A stretch of 64,000 nt of DNA. It comes from Wickerhamiella versatilis. Taxonomy: Eukaryota. Under the pieces are notes generated by a model. That model ran no database searches and was not told the DNA's origin. It worked only from the letters and a program-made list of their open reading frames with translations. The stretch is from positions 1,178,001 through 1,242,000 of the forward strand of contig JAQOWU010000008.1 in NCBI GenBank assembly GCA_030867685.1, written 5' to 3'. This document shows, piece after piece, positions 49,840-57,454 of the stretch; within the stretch, counting starts at the first letter, position 1, and every line of letters starts with the position of its first letter. Position numbers and translations under genes: made by a program.

Positions 49840-50071
49840 TGCTGCCCACACGGTTTCCGCGTCTCACGCTTACTAATGACAACACCATAGAGATTATTAT
49901 TATCTGTGTACATAGATACGGCTTGCTAATTAATATAAACGCTAGTTCATCTATTCACTAAATGACTTCTTTATACCATCTTGGCACAATATAGCATAGC
50001 GTGGCATAGCAAACACCTGATATTACGTTACAATGCGGGGGAGAAAAGAAATACAATACACTGATAATAAT

Positions 50072-50908
50072 TTAGCAGACGATATCAGTGGTGCGAATGC
50101 CTCCTAGAGGCTCACACACAGACGTGAAGGCATCCAATGCCTCACCCAGGCGCCCATCAGCACGTCTATTGTGAGCTGTTAGGCGAGTCTCCCATGCAGC
50201 TGCTTCACCCAACACGAACGACATGGAACCCTGGCGACCACGAAGTACAATGGCCCATGCCTGAGCTATCTCGTGGTACGCACGATTTCTCAGCACGTTG
50301 TTCACCGGGGATGTCCATTCCGGCAAGCTATGAATAAGTTCAGTAGCTCCATCTAGAAAAATCAACGCCTGGCCTGAGACAGTATTTTCAGCTGAGTGTG
50401 CTGGCAGGAATGCTGCGGTGTAATCAGCCAGCGCCTCAAAAAACGACCGTAAATGGGGCTCGACCCGTAAGTAGGCATAATCCCCCCTGGGATCATCCTT
50501 GTACGGCAGTCCATCCAGAATGCGCTGGTGGTACTCTTTCAACATACGCAGAGCCCGCTCTACGGTTATTTCAGGTACCAGCCGCCGCAGTGATTGGTGC
50601 GTTTCTGGATGGTTCTGAACGAGGCTCTCAACAAGGTCCAGTAACTGGTTATGGCCGAGAGACTCCAGTCTACGCCTTAGGGGTACAGCTGTAGCCCTTG
50701 GTGAATGCAACTTTGCGCGTTTATTCGAGCTCGATGGAGACGCCAGTGATCGTCGATTTGACACAGGCTCGCTAGCGCCGCCACCACCAAAGAAGTCATT
50801 TATCCGCCGTTTTCGCTTGTTCTCATTTGCTGGCGGACTGGTATGTGCGCCTACGGGACGTATAGAGTCGTCCCAGCCAAGAGAGAGCCCTACCATGGAG
50901 CGCTCCAT
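50072..50908 (-). CDS. STS1: Nuclear proteasome tethering factor Sts1/Cut8
   Basis: Bipartite NLS (KRKR...KRAK), LPLxRLLE-like PLRRRLESL, and PYK....DYAYLRV, ATELIH.LPEW. Confidence 0.82.
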   Translation of the reverse strand: MERSMVGLSLGWDDSIRPVGAHTSPPANENKRKRRINDFFGGGGASEPVSNRRSLASPSSSNKRAKLHSPRATAVPLRRRLESLGHNQLLDLVESLVQNHPETHQSLRRLVPEITVERALRMLKEYHQRILDGLPYKDDPRGDYAYLRVEPHLRSFFEALADYTAAFLPAHSAENTVSGQALIFLDGATELIHSLPEWTSPVNNVLRNRAYHEIAQAWAIVLRGRQGSMSFVLGEAAAWETRLTAHNRRADGRLGEALDAFTSVCEPLGGIRTTDIVC

Positions 50909-51266
50909 ATGCTCAGAAAGTTATAGAAAGTCGAGCTACTAAGCAGGCTTCCCAGCTGACGGACCCAGCCCGGCTGACGTAGACAGCATGATCCAAAATA
51001 GGAAGGGAATCGCTAACTCGCACATTGCCTGAGATAAACACACTTCTTCATTAATTACAGGTTTTTGAAGGACTGTAGAAGCCCTGGACTATTGAATCAG
51101 CCTCATCGGCCTGCAATCTCCCTCTCAACAAACAACTTGGCATTGTAGACTGACGATGCAGGAAGCGATGGTCCCACATAATTTCTATTCTATTTTACCT
51201 TCAACATTCGTCCACCACACTCCAATCGCACCTCAGGGTTTATATACTTGAGCAATTATTCTTTTT

Positions 51267-51905
51267 ATCACGTGCTTACGTAACACATAATGCCTATAAG
51301 GTTGCCGAATCGGTGTAGTCACGCAGCCCTGCTGCAGATGCCAGAAATATCATGATGGTGTGCGTACTCATATCCAATATCTAGTCAACGTACATATCTT
51401 AGTAGTCCAGGGTAACTTTTAGTAGCATTCTCCAAATTTTTATCGTCGAGCTTACGCTCCCCCCTGTCCGGTTATCAGTGCCCCCCTGCTTGGTTTGAGA
51501 CGGCTTAGATCTTTTTTTGTCAAGAAGAATAAGAATAGTGGGACCCTAGATATTTTGCATAATATCCCGGTCATACCCGCTTTGCTCTGAGCCTTCTCAC
51601 TGAGGGCAGGGGTAGTCCCACAGCTGAAATGTGTATTAGTAAATGGTTTCTTGCGACATCATTACAGCGGTGGCTAGTGAGAACCGGCGCATGCATGACT
51701 TTTGTCATCCCTCCACACCGATGTTGGACAATATTCTGCATTTTTAAACATAATTAGTTACTAGTTTGGCTTTATCGGAAATTGGGAAAATCTTTTTCTT
51801 CTCCTCAACGTTGTCTATGCTCCAACTGTCACCCCGCTGACGAGACCACAGCAAGCAAGCAAATGCATGACGTAATCAATGTGATATACTAGGCAACGTA
51901 TAAAG
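51267..51905 (+). promoter_or_regulatory. Stress-type promoter of the SCS2-like gene
   Basis: ATCACGTG 51267, TTACGTAA 51276, STRE CCCCT 51461 and 51483, AGGGG 51608, CRE-like TGACGTAA 51868, TATAAAG 51899. This is the longest intergenic region in the window. Confidence 0.45.
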
Positions 51906-51953
51906 CTTACAGGGCCCCGCAGTAGGAAGTTTGTAACAATATCTTTTTAGATC

Positions 51954-54899
51954 ATGGAGATCAGCCCACACGAGCTGAAATTCAATCAGCCTCTCGATGT
52001 GGTTACTCACAGCTCACTTCGATTGACGAACCCCTCGAAGGAGTTGCTAGTGTACAAGGTGAAGACCACCGCACCGAAGCTTTACTGTGTGCGTCCCAAC
52101 GCCGCAGCAGTTGCACCAGGTAAGTCACTCGATGTTGTGATCACTCGCCAGGCACACCCAGTGTCTTCCGGCGAGTCGAGCAAGGACAAATTCCTAATCC
52201 TTTCGTCCCCTATCGAGGAGGCTGAGCTGCAGAAGTACGATAATATTGCAGACGTCTGGCAGTCGCTGGAGCTCTCCAAGGCCAACACGAACCCACAAAA
52301 GGTCCGCGTGGTCTACGGTACTGAAGGTGGCTCAAGCCACTCAGCTCAAGGCGCAACTGCTGGTGCCGGTGCTGCGGGTGCCGGTGCTGGTGCCGCCGGT
52401 GCTGCACATGGGTCTTCTGAGCACGCTAATACTTCGACTACCGGGTACAATGCCCCCTCATCTGTTAATGGCGGTTATGGTACTGCCAACAAGTCACTAA
52501 ACTCGAACTACAGCGAAGCTGAACATGAGCAATATGGGTCCCAACCACAGTCTGCAGGAACCGGTGCCGGTGCCGGTGCTGGTGCTGGTGCTGGTGCTGG
52601 TGCTGCTGGTTACGAGCAATCTCCTTCGAGTGCAAAGGGTTCGTTTGGTGCCTCAGCCTCTTCCTCTGGTCCCCAGGCGTCTCCCAGTAAGGCCAAAACG
52701 GGCCCCGAACTCACTGTGGATGATATTCAGGGAACACCAGGTGTGCCACCCAAGAGCCAACTTGTAGACGAAGGTAATGCAAAGACAGGACCAAGTCTGA
52801 AAAAGGTTGGAGATTACTCGGATAAGCCCGCACCTCCCCCTGCTATGGAGAAACCTTCCGAAGGCGCAGCTGGAGGACTTGATGATTCAAAGGGTCCAGA
52901 GGTTCCAGAGGGCAAGTTTGATAGACGTGCTGATCTTGGCGACGAAAGCAAAGAGGGTGCGAAGACCCGCGAAACCTCGGATTCTAAACCCGATACTAAA
53001 GATTTGAAGTATGATAGTACTGGTGCACCTATTCATGAGGATGAGGAGAGCGGATCTAGCACCACTCAGCAGGTTAAGGATACTGCCAGCAGCTACACTG
53101 GAGCGGCAGCAGGTGCAGTAGGCGCTGCAGCGGGCGCAGTCGGTGCAGCCGTTGGCGGTCTTTTCGGCAGCAGGAAATCTGAAGATGAGTCTAGGGAAGT
53201 TCCAGAGGGTGAACAGAAGTCATCGGAAAAACTTCCTGACTTCTCTGGCCAGAAGGGACAATTCTCTCCTGAAGGTGTCGATTCTAGTGACTTGAGTAAG
53301 ACTGTCAAGGACAAGGAGAGTTCGATTGGTGGTCTTGGCGGAAAAGGTCCTAGTTCTGGGTTCGATGCTGGCGACATTGGTAAGACTGTGAAGGACAAGG
53401 AAAGCTCGCTTGGTGGCAGTGGAAAGGCACCTGGTTCTGGATTTGATGCTGGCGACGTTGGTAAGACTGTGAAGGACAAGGAAAGCTCGCTTGGTGGCAG
53501 TGGAAAGGCACCTAGTTCCGGATTCGATGCTGGCGATGTTGGTAAGACCGTCAAGGACAAGGAAAGCTCGCTTGGTGGCAGTGGAAAGGCACCTGGTTCC
53601 GGATTCGATGCTGGCGACGTTGGTAAGACTGTCAAGGACAAAGAAAGCTCGTTGGGCGGTCCAAGTGGTAAACCCTCTGGTTCTGGGCTTGACACTGGTG
53701 CTTCGTTTGGCGGTCCTCAAGGAGGAAGCAAGGGCCTCGATTCACAGGCGGGTGCTGGAGCCGGACTTGGTGCTGCCGGCGGAGTTGCTGCTGGCGGAGC
53801 TGCTGGCGGAGCTGCCTCGGGAGGCAGTGGCGGCGGCTTCAATGCTGGTGCCCTTGGAGATCAATTCAAGAACTTAGACATCTCAAAGGCCAAGGACTAT
53901 GTGCCAGAGGAGCACAAGGGCAAGGTTGATATGGCTCAGGGCTATATCGACAAGGCAAAGACTGGTGATCTCAAGGGTGCATTGCCAGAGGATCTCCAGA
54001 ATAAGTATTCCCAGGTTGAGGGCAAGATTCCCGATGGGGCAAAGCAGAAGGCAGGCGAAGTCTTGGGTGGAGCTGGTCTAGGAGGAGCTCTTGGCGGAGC
54101 TGCCGGTGGAGCTGCCGGTGGAGCTTCTGGTGGAGCTTCTGGTGGAGCCGCTGGTGATAAGGGCATTTCCGGTGGCCCTGGCTACGGTGGCTCTGGTGCT
54201 GGCTCTGGCGCTGGCTCTGGCGGCTATGGTGGCTACGGTGGCTCTGATTCTACTGCACCCAATTTTAATGAGAAAGATCTCAAGTCAGAGTCTGGCGTTC
54301 CTGACTTCAAGGGTGGTGCCCCGAGTGGAACTCCAGGTGCAAGTGGAGATCTGAGTAGCGGCGGTGGCCCTAAATCTTCTGGAATTGGATCTGAAAAGCT
54401 TCCATCTGATAACTTGGGTGGTGCAGGCTCTAAGGGTAAATTCGTAGAGAAGAACTTGGACTCTGGTGACTTGAAGAATACAGCTTCTAGCGTGCAGAAG
54501 GATGCGAAGTCAGGTGACTACAAGGGTGCTGCTAATGATGTTGCAGGTGCTCTAGGCGGAGTAGGCGCCGCAGGTGCCGCAGGAGGCCTTGGCTCATCGG
54601 CAGGTAAGAGTTCCTTAGGTGTTTCTGACAGCCAAGACAGCAGCAGTGTCAAGAGCGGACTTTCCGGCTTTGAAAAGACAATTTCAGGGCCTGCCGCATC
54701 GGCAGGTGGTGCCTACGGATCCAGAGATCCTAGTAATTATGCAGCCGCACAAGCGGAAAAGGAGTCGGGCGGCTTGGTTACCGGAGAGCAACCCTCATCC
54801 TCTGGTTCTCAACTGCAAGTAACAGAGCAGCAGGTTCCTCTGCCTACTGTATTCTTGATTGCTTTGATTGCTTTCCTTGTGGGCTGGAAGTTTTTCTAA
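51954..54899 (+). CDS. SCS2: Giant VAP/Scs2-family ER tether (MSP domain, long G/A/S-rich spacer, C-terminal TM)
   Basis: YKVKTTAPKLYCVRPN and KDKFLI MSP signature; tail anchor VFLIALIAFLVGWKFF. Confidence 0.8.
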   Translation: MEISPHELKFNQPLDVVTHSSLRLTNPSKELLVYKVKTTAPKLYCVRPNAAAVAPGKSLDVVITRQAHPVSSGESSKDKFLILSSPIEEAELQKYDNIADVWQSLELSKANTNPQKVRVVYGTEGGSSHSAQGATAGAGAAGAGAGAAGAAHGSSEHANTSTTGYNAPSSVNGGYGTANKSLNSNYSEAEHEQYGSQPQSAGTGAGAGAGAGAGAGAAGYEQSPSSAKGSFGASASSSGPQASPSKAKTGPELTVDDIQGTPGVPPKSQLVDEGNAKTGPSLKKVGDYSDKPAPPPAMEKPSEGAAGGLDDSKGPEVPEGKFDRRADLGDESKEGAKTRETSDSKPDTKDLKYDSTGAPIHEDEESGSSTTQQVKDTASSYTGAAAGAVGAAAGAVGAAVGGLFGSRKSEDESREVPEGEQKSSEKLPDFSGQKGQFSPEGVDSSDLSKTVKDKESSIGGLGGKGPSSGFDAGDIGKTVKDKESSLGGSGKAPGSGFDAGDVGKTVKDKESSLGGSGKAPSSGFDAGDVGKTVKDKESSLGGSGKAPGSGFDAGDVGKTVKDKESSLGGPSGKPSGSGLDTGASFGGPQGGSKGLDSQAGAGAGLGAAGGVAAGGAAGGAASGGSGGGFNAGALGDQFKNLDISKAKDYVPEEHKGKVDMAQGYIDKAKTGDLKGALPEDLQNKYSQVEGKIPDGAKQKAGEVLGGAGLGGALGGAAGGAAGGASGGASGGAAGDKGISGGPGYGGSGAGSGAGSGGYGGYGGSDSTAPNFNEKDLKSESGVPDFKGGAPSGTPGASGDLSSGGGPKSSGIGSEKLPSDNLGGAGSKGKFVEKNLDSGDLKNTASSVQKDAKSGDYKGAANDVAGALGGVGAAGAAGGLGSSAGKSSLGVSDSQDSSSVKSGLSGFEKTISGPAASAGGAYGSRDPSNYAAAQAEKESGGLVTGEQPSSSGSQLQVTEQQVPLPTVFLIALIAFLVGWKFF
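52562..52610 (+). repeat. (GGTGCY)n coding repeat encoding a Gly-Ala run
   Basis: ggtgccggtgccggtgctggtgctggtgctggtgct... Confidence 0.8.
53298..53700 (+). repeat. Coding minisatellite of about five 81-bp units (27 aa, KTVKDKESSLGGSGKAPGSGFDAGDVG)
   Basis: Units start at 53298, 53382, 53463, 53544 and 53625 (spacing 84, 81, 81, 81). The central units are near-identical. Confidence 0.95.
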
Positions 54900-55066
54900 G
54901 TGCTGTTGCCAATTTTCTCAAAAATCTAGGTAATTTACGTTGCATTTACGAGCTGATTTGAGTCTTGAGGTGAATGCTACATATACATAAATCTGAAGAA
55001 TTAAGTAAATCTGTGATTATATAACATTGTGACACTAGGTAGGAGCTCAGGCCAGTCTTACTGGTG

Positions 55067-55624
55067 ATGGCCGCGAGCGAAATTAGCGGCCTAGAGAGCG
55101 ATGATGGAAGTGACAGTGATCAATTTGAATTCCTGGCAGATGCCACAAGCGAATCTCGAAGCTCTTCAGAAGTCGAAGATTTGCGGAAGATCGAAAATTG
55201 GGAAGACATTGAGGATTCAAGACAGTATTTGGCTGAACAACATGAGGCTAATTTCACCTCTATGGTACAAAACATGGAAAGGAGAGCGGCAGATGATCCA
55301 GACGAAGGTGAGACCATCGACCTGATAACATTACGACCTGTCAAGGCTCCCCGGAGAGACTACCCAGATCCATGGAAATCCTCAGAGGACAAGAATAGGA
55401 TCGAAGGGCCACCAAATCTGTTGGAATTGGAAGATTCTATTGATTCAGAGTCCGATGAAAGTGATTCACTATCCGTTGCCGCCGAAGATGAAGAAGTAGG
55501 TATTGTGGAGGCCAATGCTACTCAATCAATCCAACCCACCCCTTTTCATACTGCATGCATTTCAGGATCCAATCTTCTTGACCGAGTGGTAACAGAACTT
55601 ATAGCAATAGCCAATAGTTCCTAA
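55067..55624 (+). CDS. Acidic protein, possibly a divergent Scm3 (CENP-A chaperone)
   Basis: An amphipathic helix followed by DEGETIDLIT resembles the Scm3 G-D/E-x-I/V-D-L-x-T motif. The rest is acidic and disordered. ATG at 55067. Confidence 0.45.
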   Translation: MAASEISGLESDDGSDSDQFEFLADATSESRSSSEVEDLRKIENWEDIEDSRQYLAEQHEANFTSMVQNMERRAADDPDEGETIDLITLRPVKAPRRDYPDPWKSSEDKNRIEGPPNLLELEDSIDSESDESDSLSVAAEDEEVGIVEANATQSIQPTPFHTACISGSNLLDRVVTELIAIANSS

Positions 55625-55633
55625 TTCTTAGTT

Positions 55634-55640
55634 GGTGGCG
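55634..55640 (+). promoter_or_regulatory. PACE/Rpn4-like core GGTGGC upstream of RPN9
   Basis: GGTGGCG in the 35-bp spacer, about 20 bp before the ATG of a proteasome subunit gene. Confidence 0.45.
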
Positions 55641-55659
55641 CTTCACCTTTTTTGTCAGC

Positions 55660-56805
55660 ATGGCTGTCGACACGCTCACAGTGTTGTCGAGTCTTCGACA
55701 AAGTTGCGACGAGAAGCTTGCACCTCTTTTTTTCCAAATAGAAGACTTATGGGAGCGTAAGCTTTGGCATCAGTTGACTGATACTCTAGTGGAGCTGTAC
55801 AGGGATGAGTCCAGCGCACCAATCAGGAAGCCACTCTTTGAACGGTTTGTTGCGCCGCTTTCAGAGAATATGAACCAACTTGCTTATGTTGGGCTTGGCA
55901 TTAAAGCTAGTGAGGAGTGTAGCAGCCCTCAAGAGGCACTGGACTTCCTTAACTCTATTGGGAAGAAAGTGGATAAGGATGAAATTCGTGATGTACATGT
56001 TTATCTTGAGCTACGTATCGCCTCTATATATGTTCAGCTAAATGATGCTGGAGCGGCTAAGAAGATACTTGATCGTGCAAAGCGATTAGTTGACGATATG
56101 GAGATTGCGGATCCTGTTATTGCTGCTGCATATTACGGTACTGCTTGCGAATATTTCAAGAGCAGGGCAGCCTACAGCAATTACTATAGACATGCGCTTC
56201 TTTATCTAGCCTGCATCGATCACAACAGTCTCACACCAGTGCACTTACAGCAAAGGGCGTACGACCTTGCCGTCGCTGCTCTTCTTGGTGATTCAATTTA
56301 TAACTTTGGTGAGCTAATCTTACATCCCATTTTGGCCGCTTTGGATGGAAAATACTCCTGGTTACGTGAACTCATACTGGCAGTTAACTATGGCAATATC
56401 ACTCGTTTCCAGGAGTTGAAGCCAGAGCTTTCCAAAGCACCGCTACTTGCAGGCGCTGTGCCATTCTTGGAACAAAAGATATGCTTGATGGCTTTGTGTG
56501 AATGCGTCTTTAAGCGTGCCACGGCGGATCGGACCCTGAGCTTCGATACCATTGCGAAAGAAACACATCTACAAGTAGGTGCTAAAGTTGAGGTGCTGGT
56601 CATGAAAGCATTTTCGATTGGGCTGCTGCGCGGATCGATCGATCAGGTGTCACGATTAGTGAGTATAACCTGGCTGCAACCTCGGATTCTCGATAAGGAG
56701 CAAGTCCGAACAATGCGCGCAAAAGTCAGTCAGTGGGACAGAGATGTTGAGAATTTGGGTCACTGGATGCAGACTGAAGGCCGCGACGTATGGTCGGCGG
56801 CATAA
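55660..56805 (+). CDS. RPN9: 26S proteasome lid subunit Rpn9
   Basis: EDLWERKLWHQLT, ALLYLAC, ALLGDSIYNFGEL.LHPIL, EQKICLMAL and a PCI domain with GSIDQV..TWLQPR. Confidence 0.95.
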   Translation: MAVDTLTVLSSLRQSCDEKLAPLFFQIEDLWERKLWHQLTDTLVELYRDESSAPIRKPLFERFVAPLSENMNQLAYVGLGIKASEECSSPQEALDFLNSIGKKVDKDEIRDVHVYLELRIASIYVQLNDAGAAKKILDRAKRLVDDMEIADPVIAAAYYGTACEYFKSRAAYSNYYRHALLYLACIDHNSLTPVHLQQRAYDLAVAALLGDSIYNFGELILHPILAALDGKYSWLRELILAVNYGNITRFQELKPELSKAPLLAGAVPFLEQKICLMALCECVFKRATADRTLSFDTIAKETHLQVGAKVEVLVMKAFSIGLLRGSIDQVSRLVSITWLQPRILDKEQVRTMRAKVSQWDRDVENLGHWMQTEGRDVWSAA

Positions 56806-56821
56806 ATGTAGTGTAGTACTT

Positions 56822-57454
56822 CTAGGGCTTTATGATAAGTGAACAAGGGCCTTCGTACTTTAATGTTTTCTTTTGTGTGGCCTCTACCCCTTTGTTCTTT
56901 AAATAGGTCCAATACCTTTTTCCCCAAATTTCCTTTCCAGACCAGGGAAGTGTCCAGGGAAGTGTCCAGGGAAGCGGTTGGCGTTTCGTCACCAGCTGGT
57001 ACACATGTGAAGTAGCCCTTGAGATTTTACTGATGACGTGGACTAGCTTATTTGCAAGCCATCGAGTCCACGCTACCATCACATCAAGTCTGGTATCAAA
57101 GTGAACCTCTTTGGGCGGTCCAGTACCTAGTGAACATGCAACGACTTTCGATGGTTTGACAAAAAATTGTGACCCCTCCGGGACATCCACACAATACATG
57201 CCACCAGGGGCACTGACGGCAAAATCATCACTGGTCCGAAGCATTAATGAGTTAGATGGTACCCATTGGCGGCGATTCAGGATACTAGGAAAACCAGAAC
57301 CACCCACAAGAAATTCTGGGGAATTATCAGCAATTTTATTTCCCTTAACCGAGATCCTGGATTCACACGCGATAATCCTGCCACTTAACAGTTCCACACT
57401 AGCTGCTTTAGCGACACGGACTGCACAACCAGGCGCTCCAAGAACCGTGATCAT
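56822..57454 (-). CDS. Aim24-like protein (short, possibly only the N-terminal half)
   Basis: N-terminal VLGAP.C..V and C-terminal YEGPCSLII resemble Aim24 segments. The similarity is weak. Confidence 0.45.
   Translation of the reverse strand: MITVLGAPGCAVRVAKAASVELLSGRIIACESRISVKGNKIADNSPEFLVGGSGFPSILNRRQWVPSNSLMLRTSDDFAVSAPGGMYCVDVPEGSQFFVKPSKVVACSLGTGPPKEVHFDTRLDVMVAWTRWLANKLVHVISKISRATSHVYQLVTKRQPLPWTLPWTLPWSGKEIWGKRYWTYLKNKGVEATQKKTLKYEGPCSLIIKP
56942..56974. repeat. 12-bp tandem repeat (ccagggaagtgt x2.75), in frame as LPWT
   Basis: Read directly; it encodes LPWTLPWTLPW on the minus strand. Confidence 0.85.

Follow-up and report, generated by a model that had tools for sequence, protein, structure and literature searches.

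The window analysed here, a stretch of 64,000 nucleotides of Wickerhamiella versatilis DNA (contig JAQOWU010000008.1), contains an open reading frame (ORF) that is, almost certainly on the evidence of its sequence, the genome's single orthologue of the tail-anchored endoplasmic reticulum (ER) protein VAP/Scs2. With 981 amino acids (aa), the predicted protein is nearly four times as long as a usual VAP, and a spacer of about 835 aa separates its MSP domain from its membrane anchor. The reading that we prefer, and hold to be somewhat probable, is that of an ordinary receptor for FFAT (a pair of phenylalanines within an acidic tract) motifs placed on a long flexible leash: the spacer would be disordered and loosely held in length, with its reading frame and one short box kept by selection. 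The main parts of the gene are as follows:

51954..54899, + strand: VAP/Scs2 ORF, 981 open codons in a single exon
51954..52319, + strand: MSP domain, aa 1-122 (Pfam, PDB match, AlphaFold2 and alignment)
52320..54836, + strand: disordered spacer rich in G, S, A, K and D, about 835 aa (composition and AlphaFold2)
54840..54893, + strand: C-terminal transmembrane anchor, aa 963-980 (hydropathy and AlphaFold2 helix)

The original prediction described an intact MSP domain (aa 1-122) and a tail anchor around some 830 aa of G/A/S/K/D-rich sequence, and on this the ORF, Pfam, AlphaFold2 and composition agree. PF00635 (MSP), the sole Pfam domain above the cut-off in the ORF, matched aa 2-104 (E 8.7e-23), and the best solved relatives were the MSP structures of S. 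cerevisiae Scs2, which covered aa 1-121 (E 3.6e-18). In the AlphaFold2 model, based on an alignment only 6 rows deep, aa 1-121 and a helix at 963-980 were folded, 817 of 981 residues had a predicted local distance difference test (pLDDT) value below 50, and no helix was seen at aa 122-962, so that no coiled coil is predicted. Hydropathy reached 2.1 across aa 963-981. In the spacer (aa 125-958), G, A, S, K and D make up 65% of the residues (G 22, S 14, A 13, K 9 and D 7%), aromatic residues 4% and Arg 0.7%, the net charge is about -22, and several short Gly-Ala repeats occur; for the whole protein, Gly amounts to 19%, compared with 3-11% in the other window ORFs of at least 150 aa, none of which is as low in complexity. 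The residues of the FFAT pocket (K35, K37, T38, T39, K42, K79, L81 and K116) are all present and pair with K38, K40, T41, T42, K45, K84, L86 and K120 of Scs2, where K84 and L86 presumably correspond to K87 and M89 of VAPB. Ten columns were invariant among 65 VAPs, including K35, K37, T38, T39 and K79. The roles of such residues in FFAT and lipid binding are described in PMC8306308 and bioRxiv 2023.01.12.523872.

Four of 16 sequencing runs (X1, X7, X11 and X14) were mapped to positions 50001-56900; X11 and X14, picked by their species label, are RNA runs of two studies, as none of the runs listed for this stretch was registered as RNA. Positions 52552-52615 were skipped as a repeat, where the reads seem to be cut. 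Every bin of the ORF was covered in both RNA runs, with a mean depth of about 1400 in X11 and 315 in X14 against about 290 and 270 over the RPN9 gene, that is, about 5 and 1.2 times the RPN9 level in libraries that differ. None of the 8 joints listed for the RNA runs skipped forward, all of them going back or switching strand, and a script searching the ORF for splice signals returned one donor-like hexamer and no branch-point match. The loose ends at 52373 and 52393 were rejected as splice joints, being reads from the skipped second Gly-Ala repeat that had been placed on the first one. An assembly artefact or a spliced-out spacer could be suspected because the DNA run X7 lacks 288 bp, reads are unplaced at 52552-52615 and the exact protein is absent from the sequence collection; the even, unspliced RNA coverage in two studies makes either very unlikely, and an independent relative of 916 aa (P0134) has the same layout. 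The extra-long VAP is real and unspliced, as originally proposed, and we regard the opposite as scarcely worth considering.

The giant is very likely the only VAP of the cell. A second SCS2 of normal length, for which the original prediction suggested a search, was not found at E up to 10 when PF00635 and the MSP sequence were compared with the genome (9.88 Mb, 8 contigs) exon by exon, the best candidates being scored; only the present locus was matched. For comparison, 188 of 245 stored homologues passed a filter for one N-terminal MSP domain and a hydrophobic tail, and these fungal-type VAPs had a median length of 268 aa (quartiles 242-325), 10 of them exceeding 400 aa. In a tree of 37 rows built from the MSP domain and tail, the query fell into a clade of 8 rows with support of 94/89, which is below the starred mark, grouped with Starmerella bacillaris and standing beside Trichomonascus, Blastobotrys and Sugiyamaella, whose VAPs have 243-353 aa. 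The relatives within the clade, which we take to be of Starmerella/Wickerhamiella type, are the following:

Placed by the tree: Starmerella bacillaris GMM51621.1, 433 aa; from Logan, P0134, 916 aa, and P0170, 534 aa
Placed by the tree, also from Logan: P0150 and P0258, 471 and 473 aa; P0137, 454 aa; P0181, 417 aa

All 8 members are long (417-981 aa), and only 2 of them exceed 540 aa; elongation is a trait of the clade and giant size belongs to 2 of its 8 members. The possibility, named in the original prediction as one that would speak against it, that long spacers are routine in this clade is therefore borne out for elongation as such and not for the giant size. Spacers measured 263-827 aa in 7 clade members and 97-199 aa in 4 outgroups. 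Since the tree nests the proteins of 433 and 454 aa among the two giants, length appears to go up as well as down. P0134 was the best single-domain match of an unindexed sequence search; a word search for long VAPs (539-1717 aa) yielded, among 168 candidates, one 566-aa Clathrus protein without a terminal anchor, and this search is insensitive, because it missed P0134.

Within the species, every one of the 6 indel or deletion events listed for the ORF preserves the reading frame (-12 in X11; +9, +6, -24 and -12 in X1; -288 in X7), compared with 1 of 4 outside the ORF that is a multiple of 3; the +6 of X1 combines a +1 with a +5 lying five bases from it. The largest event is this one:

53804..54091, + strand: in-frame absence of 288 bp (96 aa, about aa 617-713) in the DNA contig of X7, at a 13-nt microhomology

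The segment is present in X1, X11 and X14. Among the spacer substitutions listed, drawn from 40 of 155 rows, 12 of 17 were synonymous against an expected fraction of 0.29 (P 4e-4), and 9 of 13 when the rows of the tandem array described below were left out (P 3e-3). Taken together, the in-frame indels and the synonymous excess indicate that the spacer is translated and constrained, yet tolerates changes of length. This bears on a rival explanation, nearly neutral bloating, in which repeat slippage has enlarged a linker that tolerates it; importance would then be confined to the MSP domain, the anchor and perhaps the box, and the length would have no function. It would account for the many short tandem repeats and the 81-bp array inside the ORF, for in-frame length variants in 3 of 4 runs reaching 288 bp, for a spacer that is almost unalignable between species outside the box, and for the 433- and 454-aa proteins nested among the giants. 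Against it stand the synonymous excess, the length of all 8 clade members, a compact genome in which most gaps are below 500 bp and no other window protein is of such low complexity, and the abundant mRNA (about 5 times RPN9 in X11 and 1.2 times in X14), given which the extra length carries a cost. We consider bloating a serious but clearly lesser possibility.

Between relatives, spacer sequence and composition have otherwise diverged, with almost nothing alignable outside one conserved segment:

52722..52835, + strand: conserved linker box, aa about 257-294 (alignment and profile; clade VAPs only)

Its core reads G-[VI]-P-x-K-S-x4-x-G-[DN]-A-x2-G-P-x-L, and the conserved part spans about 30 aa. 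The query has the box, as do 5 of its 7 relatives in the clade, P0170 and P0181 being those without it, and the box gave leave-one-out scores of 30-59 bits compared with at most 10.5 for 300-600 shuffles. A profile search of a 5.8-billion set returned 5 matches among 7467 candidates, all of them MSP proteins and 4 of them training rows; no match was found in Pfam, PDB, ESM Atlas, JGI metagenomes or the rest of the genome. Ist2 offers a parallel, since the conserved island of its disordered tail turned out to be where Osh6/7 binds (PMC8282664, PMC12618243), and by this analogy the box is probably a docking site for some partner.

The dimensions of the spacer argue for a leash. A coil scaling law applied to 835 residues gave a radius of gyration of 8.5 nm and a root-mean-square span of about 21 nm, compared with a span of 7 nm for 100 residues; the contour is about 317 nm. 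The yeast gap separating the ER from the plasma membrane (PM) is 20-22 nm at Scs2, Ist2 and Tcb3 sites despite their different linkers (PMC6863393), and 20-22 nm whichever tether is present (PMC7387695). Because the span equals the usual ER-PM distance and the gap does not depend on the tether, a leash is favoured over a widening of the gap, and the suggestion in the original prediction that the protein bridges much wider gaps is doubtful. A tether holding or bridging ER contacts far wider than 20-30 nm might still be imagined from the contour length, from reconstituted contacts in which the length and density of VAP-A set a membrane separation of 10-30 nm (PMC8187361), from an Ist2 that, as shown below, cannot tether by its tail in this genome, and from a dense brush of long chains, which could push membranes apart; the span just given and the shared gap of the S. 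cerevisiae tethers oppose it, and the two tricalbins present in the genome would hold the usual gap. We judge such a tether to be improbable.

The promoter was examined together with the ends of the transcript:

50909..51953, strand not assigned: divergent promoter of 1045 bp, common to VAP and the Cut8/Sts1 gene (motif scan)
51935, + strand: transcript 5' end (template-switch adapter, 71 reads of X14)
54950, + strand: main transcript 3' end (X11)

The 1045-bp gap is the largest of 36 between window ORFs of at least 150 aa. It was described as a 1-kb promoter rich in stress response elements (STREs), cAMP response elements (CREs) and TATA; a TATA box (TATAAA, 51899) and a CRE (51868) were found, with an uncorrected P of about 0.03 in comparison with shuffles, while STRE richness did not hold up, as the 3 STREs (51461, 51483 and 51608) compare with 1.7 expected (P 0.23) and are not above chance. 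The stress induction that the original prediction read from this promoter is conjectural. Basic leucine zipper (bZIP)-type sites at 51276, 51636 and 51868 are 3 of 10 in the whole window. The transcript start lies 36 nt downstream of the TATA box, counted from its first base, which is a short distance of the fixed type; in S. cerevisiae, a long distance is scanned from TATA to the start. A hydrophilin-like fusion was also proposed. The hydrophilicity index is the negative of the mean Kyte-Doolittle value, which is -0.63 for the spacer. Hydrophilins are defined by Gly above 6% and hydrophilicity above 1.0 (PMC11277543), so the spacer qualifies by its 22% Gly and fails by its hydrophilicity of 0.63; the ORF has no Pfam LEA or hydrophilin match, and a search of the genome for a donor copy of the spacer gave only the self-match. 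Neither this fusion nor the formation of condensates, for which 4% aromatic residues and 0.7% Arg would offer few stickers, is favoured. A stress-induced shield or condensate former on the ER would fit the Gly content, the long TATA promoter with 3 of the 10 bZIP-type sites, and a VAP/RPN9 level that differs about fourfold between two studies that may differ in conditions and do differ in libraries; with hydrophilicity, family matches, donor, stickers and chance-level STREs all against it, we rate it as even less probable than the wide-gap tether.

Candidate partners of the MSP domain were also considered. An Osh1/2-like protein of 1058 aa (L020:817-3990) has the FFAT EFYDVEE at aa 532 after an acidic tract and, with the FFAT- and lipid-binding residues intact, this good FFAT suggests that the MSP head should work as usual. 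A Gly/Ala-rich low-complexity insert follows this FFAT and resembles the inserts of the VAP spacer. An Osh3-like protein of about 889 aa (L019:1347-4019) showed no FFAT-like match by pattern; between its PH domain and ORD lies a strongly hydrophobic stretch (its hydropathy is 2.3 near aa 404, and another apolar run comes before it), possibly a membrane anchor of its own that replaces VAP binding. An Opi1-like frame (L017:1294-2055, - strand) has only 253 aa and no FFAT-like match by pattern.

The lipid-transfer protein Osh6 provides a further, tentative lead. The Ist2/TMEM16 orthologue (L004:1012-2823; G000:C8, about 1043500-1045300), the sole TMEM16 above the Pfam cut-off, has 603 aa and ends about 35 residues past its last helix, the next gene lying about 60 bp on, so that it has neither a disordered tail nor a polybasic tip. 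The tail of S. cerevisiae Ist2 has 330-360 aa and tethers and holds Osh6 (PMC13286939, PMC12618243); lacking such a tail, the genome's Ist2 can neither tether nor hold Osh6 in that way. A derived loss of the tail was considered and rejected as unproven, given that other yeasts have short tails too and that the Osh6-binding motif arose near Saccharomycetaceae. The Osh6/7 orthologue (L008:1114-2442, - strand, E 1e-125) has a C-terminal extension of about 39 aa past the aligned part, and its C-terminus is the FFAT-like K-F-V-D-A-N-Q. All 4 of the near-identical cluster members retain this motif, and in 3 of the 4 there is an extra Asp just upstream. S. cerevisiae Osh6 is described as having no FFAT and as depending on Ist2 rather than Scs2 (bioRxiv 2020.01.31.928440). 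Three Osh6 side chains in contact with Ist2, Y391, Q417 and T420, are replaced by D, A and P in the alignment, which is poor in that region, and D141/L142 are kept.

ESMFold2, which made no use of the supplied alignment, placed the Osh6 tail in the MSP pocket with Phe435 against K37, T38, T39, K79 and L81; the interaction prediction score from aligned errors (ipSAE) was 0.82 compared with 0.04 for the best of 3 controls, contacts agreed between runs to at least 60%, and the partner had a pLDDT of 45-58. Among microbial pairs, 51 of 78 solved and 2 of 108 mismatched ones reached the mark used for such models, a benchmark that peptides lie outside; among eukaryotic pairs, the figures were 39 of 65 for solved pairs that had no like complex and 2 of 126 for unrelated pairs. 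As MSP-FFAT complexes have already been solved and the benchmark holds no peptides, the model shows likeness rather than binding. In a search of metagenomes for Osh6 relatives that could serve to test the tail motif, 0 of 139 pattern matches were confirmed. For Osh6 shuttling, Ist2 requires 170-250 linker residues (PMC12618243), a minimum that all 7 measured clade spacers exceed. Given the tailless Ist2 and the FFAT-like tail of Osh6, the VAP linker may do the leash job of the Ist2 tail of baker's yeast. The full version, in which the ER-PM lipid shuttle of this lineage has been rewired, Osh6 has gained its tail motif, VAP has lengthened to serve as the entropic leash of Osh6 and the box is a new docking site independent of the MSP domain, is speculative, with a probability that is low but not negligible.

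According to the leash reading, the protein would be anchored in the ER by its tail, and its MSP domain, judging from the intact residues, would recognise FFAT motifs along with anionic lipids, like its counterparts in other yeasts. The spacer would be a disordered leash, grown by internal repeat expansion in the Starmerella-type lineage; as the variation shows, its exact length appears loosely held, with the frame, much of the sequence and the one box kept by selection. Such a leash would leave the gap at its ordinary width of about 20 nm and let the MSP head and its riders, likely the Osh1/2-like protein and possibly Osh6 via its C-terminal motif, move freely and reach partners at little entropic cost. 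Several points weigh against this. The keeping of frame may be partly mechanical, because most in-frame indels lie in repeats with a period of 3n, and most of the 835 aa may do nothing, since one run lacks 96 aa and S. bacillaris manages with about 280; in vitro, moreover, VAP-A length did set the membrane separation. Fungi whose VAPs are short seem commonly to have a tailless TMEM16, and short-tailed forms occur in further yeasts and fungi as well. The Osh6 motif is imperfect, with K at position 1, V at position 3 and a weak acidic tract; an FFAT-like core arises by chance in about 6% of 40-aa stretches, and among the tails of 37 window ORFs it was seen once. The Osh6 of Yarrowia is described as being chiefly an ORD (PMC9925530).

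Further features of the spacer are listed here:

53109..53165, + strand: mildly hydrophobic stretch rich in Ala, Val and Gly, aa 386-404; relatives have similar stretches after the box
53296..53655, + strand: tandem array, 81 bp (27 aa) x 4.4 with 90% matches (repeat scan)
54663..54731, + strand: second short segment, aa about 904-926, common only to the query and the 916-aa P0134 (by eye, unscored)

The 81-bp array is a recent internal expansion. F-D-A-G-D or a near variant recurs in four units around it and corresponds to FFAT positions 3-7 with Gly at position 2; these units are probably non-functional as FFAT, and a pattern search of the spacer gave no canonical FFAT. A higher-complexity island at 53859-54060 (aa about 636-702) consists of two loosely repeated halves and is part of what X7 lacks. 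The VAP gene itself lies between two proteasome-related genes, the divergent Cut8/Sts1 and RPN9 (window 50072-56805). Between VAP and RPN9, a 185-aa acidic ORF (55067-55624) is transcribed, with a 5' end near 55019, and has no Pfam match above the cut-off.

VAP serves eukaryotes as their main ER adaptor, with a linker that is regarded as short and tuned. A genome whose only VAP is abundantly transcribed and has a linker of 835 residues offers a natural test of whether tether length sets the contact width or only the reach, and the linkers of relatives (about 100 to 830 residues) together with the in-frame variants within the species form a natural length series. In the box, VAP has a candidate interaction site that lies apart from its MSP domain, and the Osh6 lead is relevant to how Osh6 is brought to contacts in yeasts that lack the Ist2 motif. 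No published account of this VAP, its box or an FFAT-bearing Osh6 was found in a literature that mostly excluded subscription papers.

Among known systems, the protein shares with the Scs2/Scs22 pairs of S. cerevisiae and S. pombe (PF00635; PDB 8hs7, 6lp4) the order of N-terminal MSP domain, disordered linker and C-terminal ER anchor, and with yeast Scs2 the intact FFAT- and lipid-binding residues. A coiled coil, a metazoan VAP feature, was not found in the query model; Scs2 likewise has no predicted one, and it is not required of yeast members (PMC11944328). It differs from S. pombe Scs2 and Scs22 (383 and 319 aa) in being a single copy of 981 aa, and from Scs2/Scs22 in a linker that bears a conserved box and a 27-aa repeat array. 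Like hydrophilins of the Hsp12 and Sip18 class, it is Gly-rich and disordered; unlike them, it fails on hydrophilicity, is membrane-anchored and gives no sequence match. The S. cerevisiae Ist2 tail resembles it in being a long disordered linker that is anchored in the ER, contains one short island of conservation and exceeds the minimum for tethered lipid shuttling; there is no homology, however, and Ist2 has a polybasic PM anchor at its end and Osh6 bound in mid-linker, whereas the free end of the query is the MSP domain, and the box, with no PDB or Pfam match, is without the Thr/aromatic pattern described for the Ist2 island. Its closest counterparts are the S. bacillaris VAP (GMM51621.1) and the Logan relatives, one clade in which all are long and 5 of 7 have the box; none of these relatives seems to have a published description. 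By all testable defining features, the protein is a member of the VAP family, with a linker that is extreme, clade-specific and apparently undescribed.

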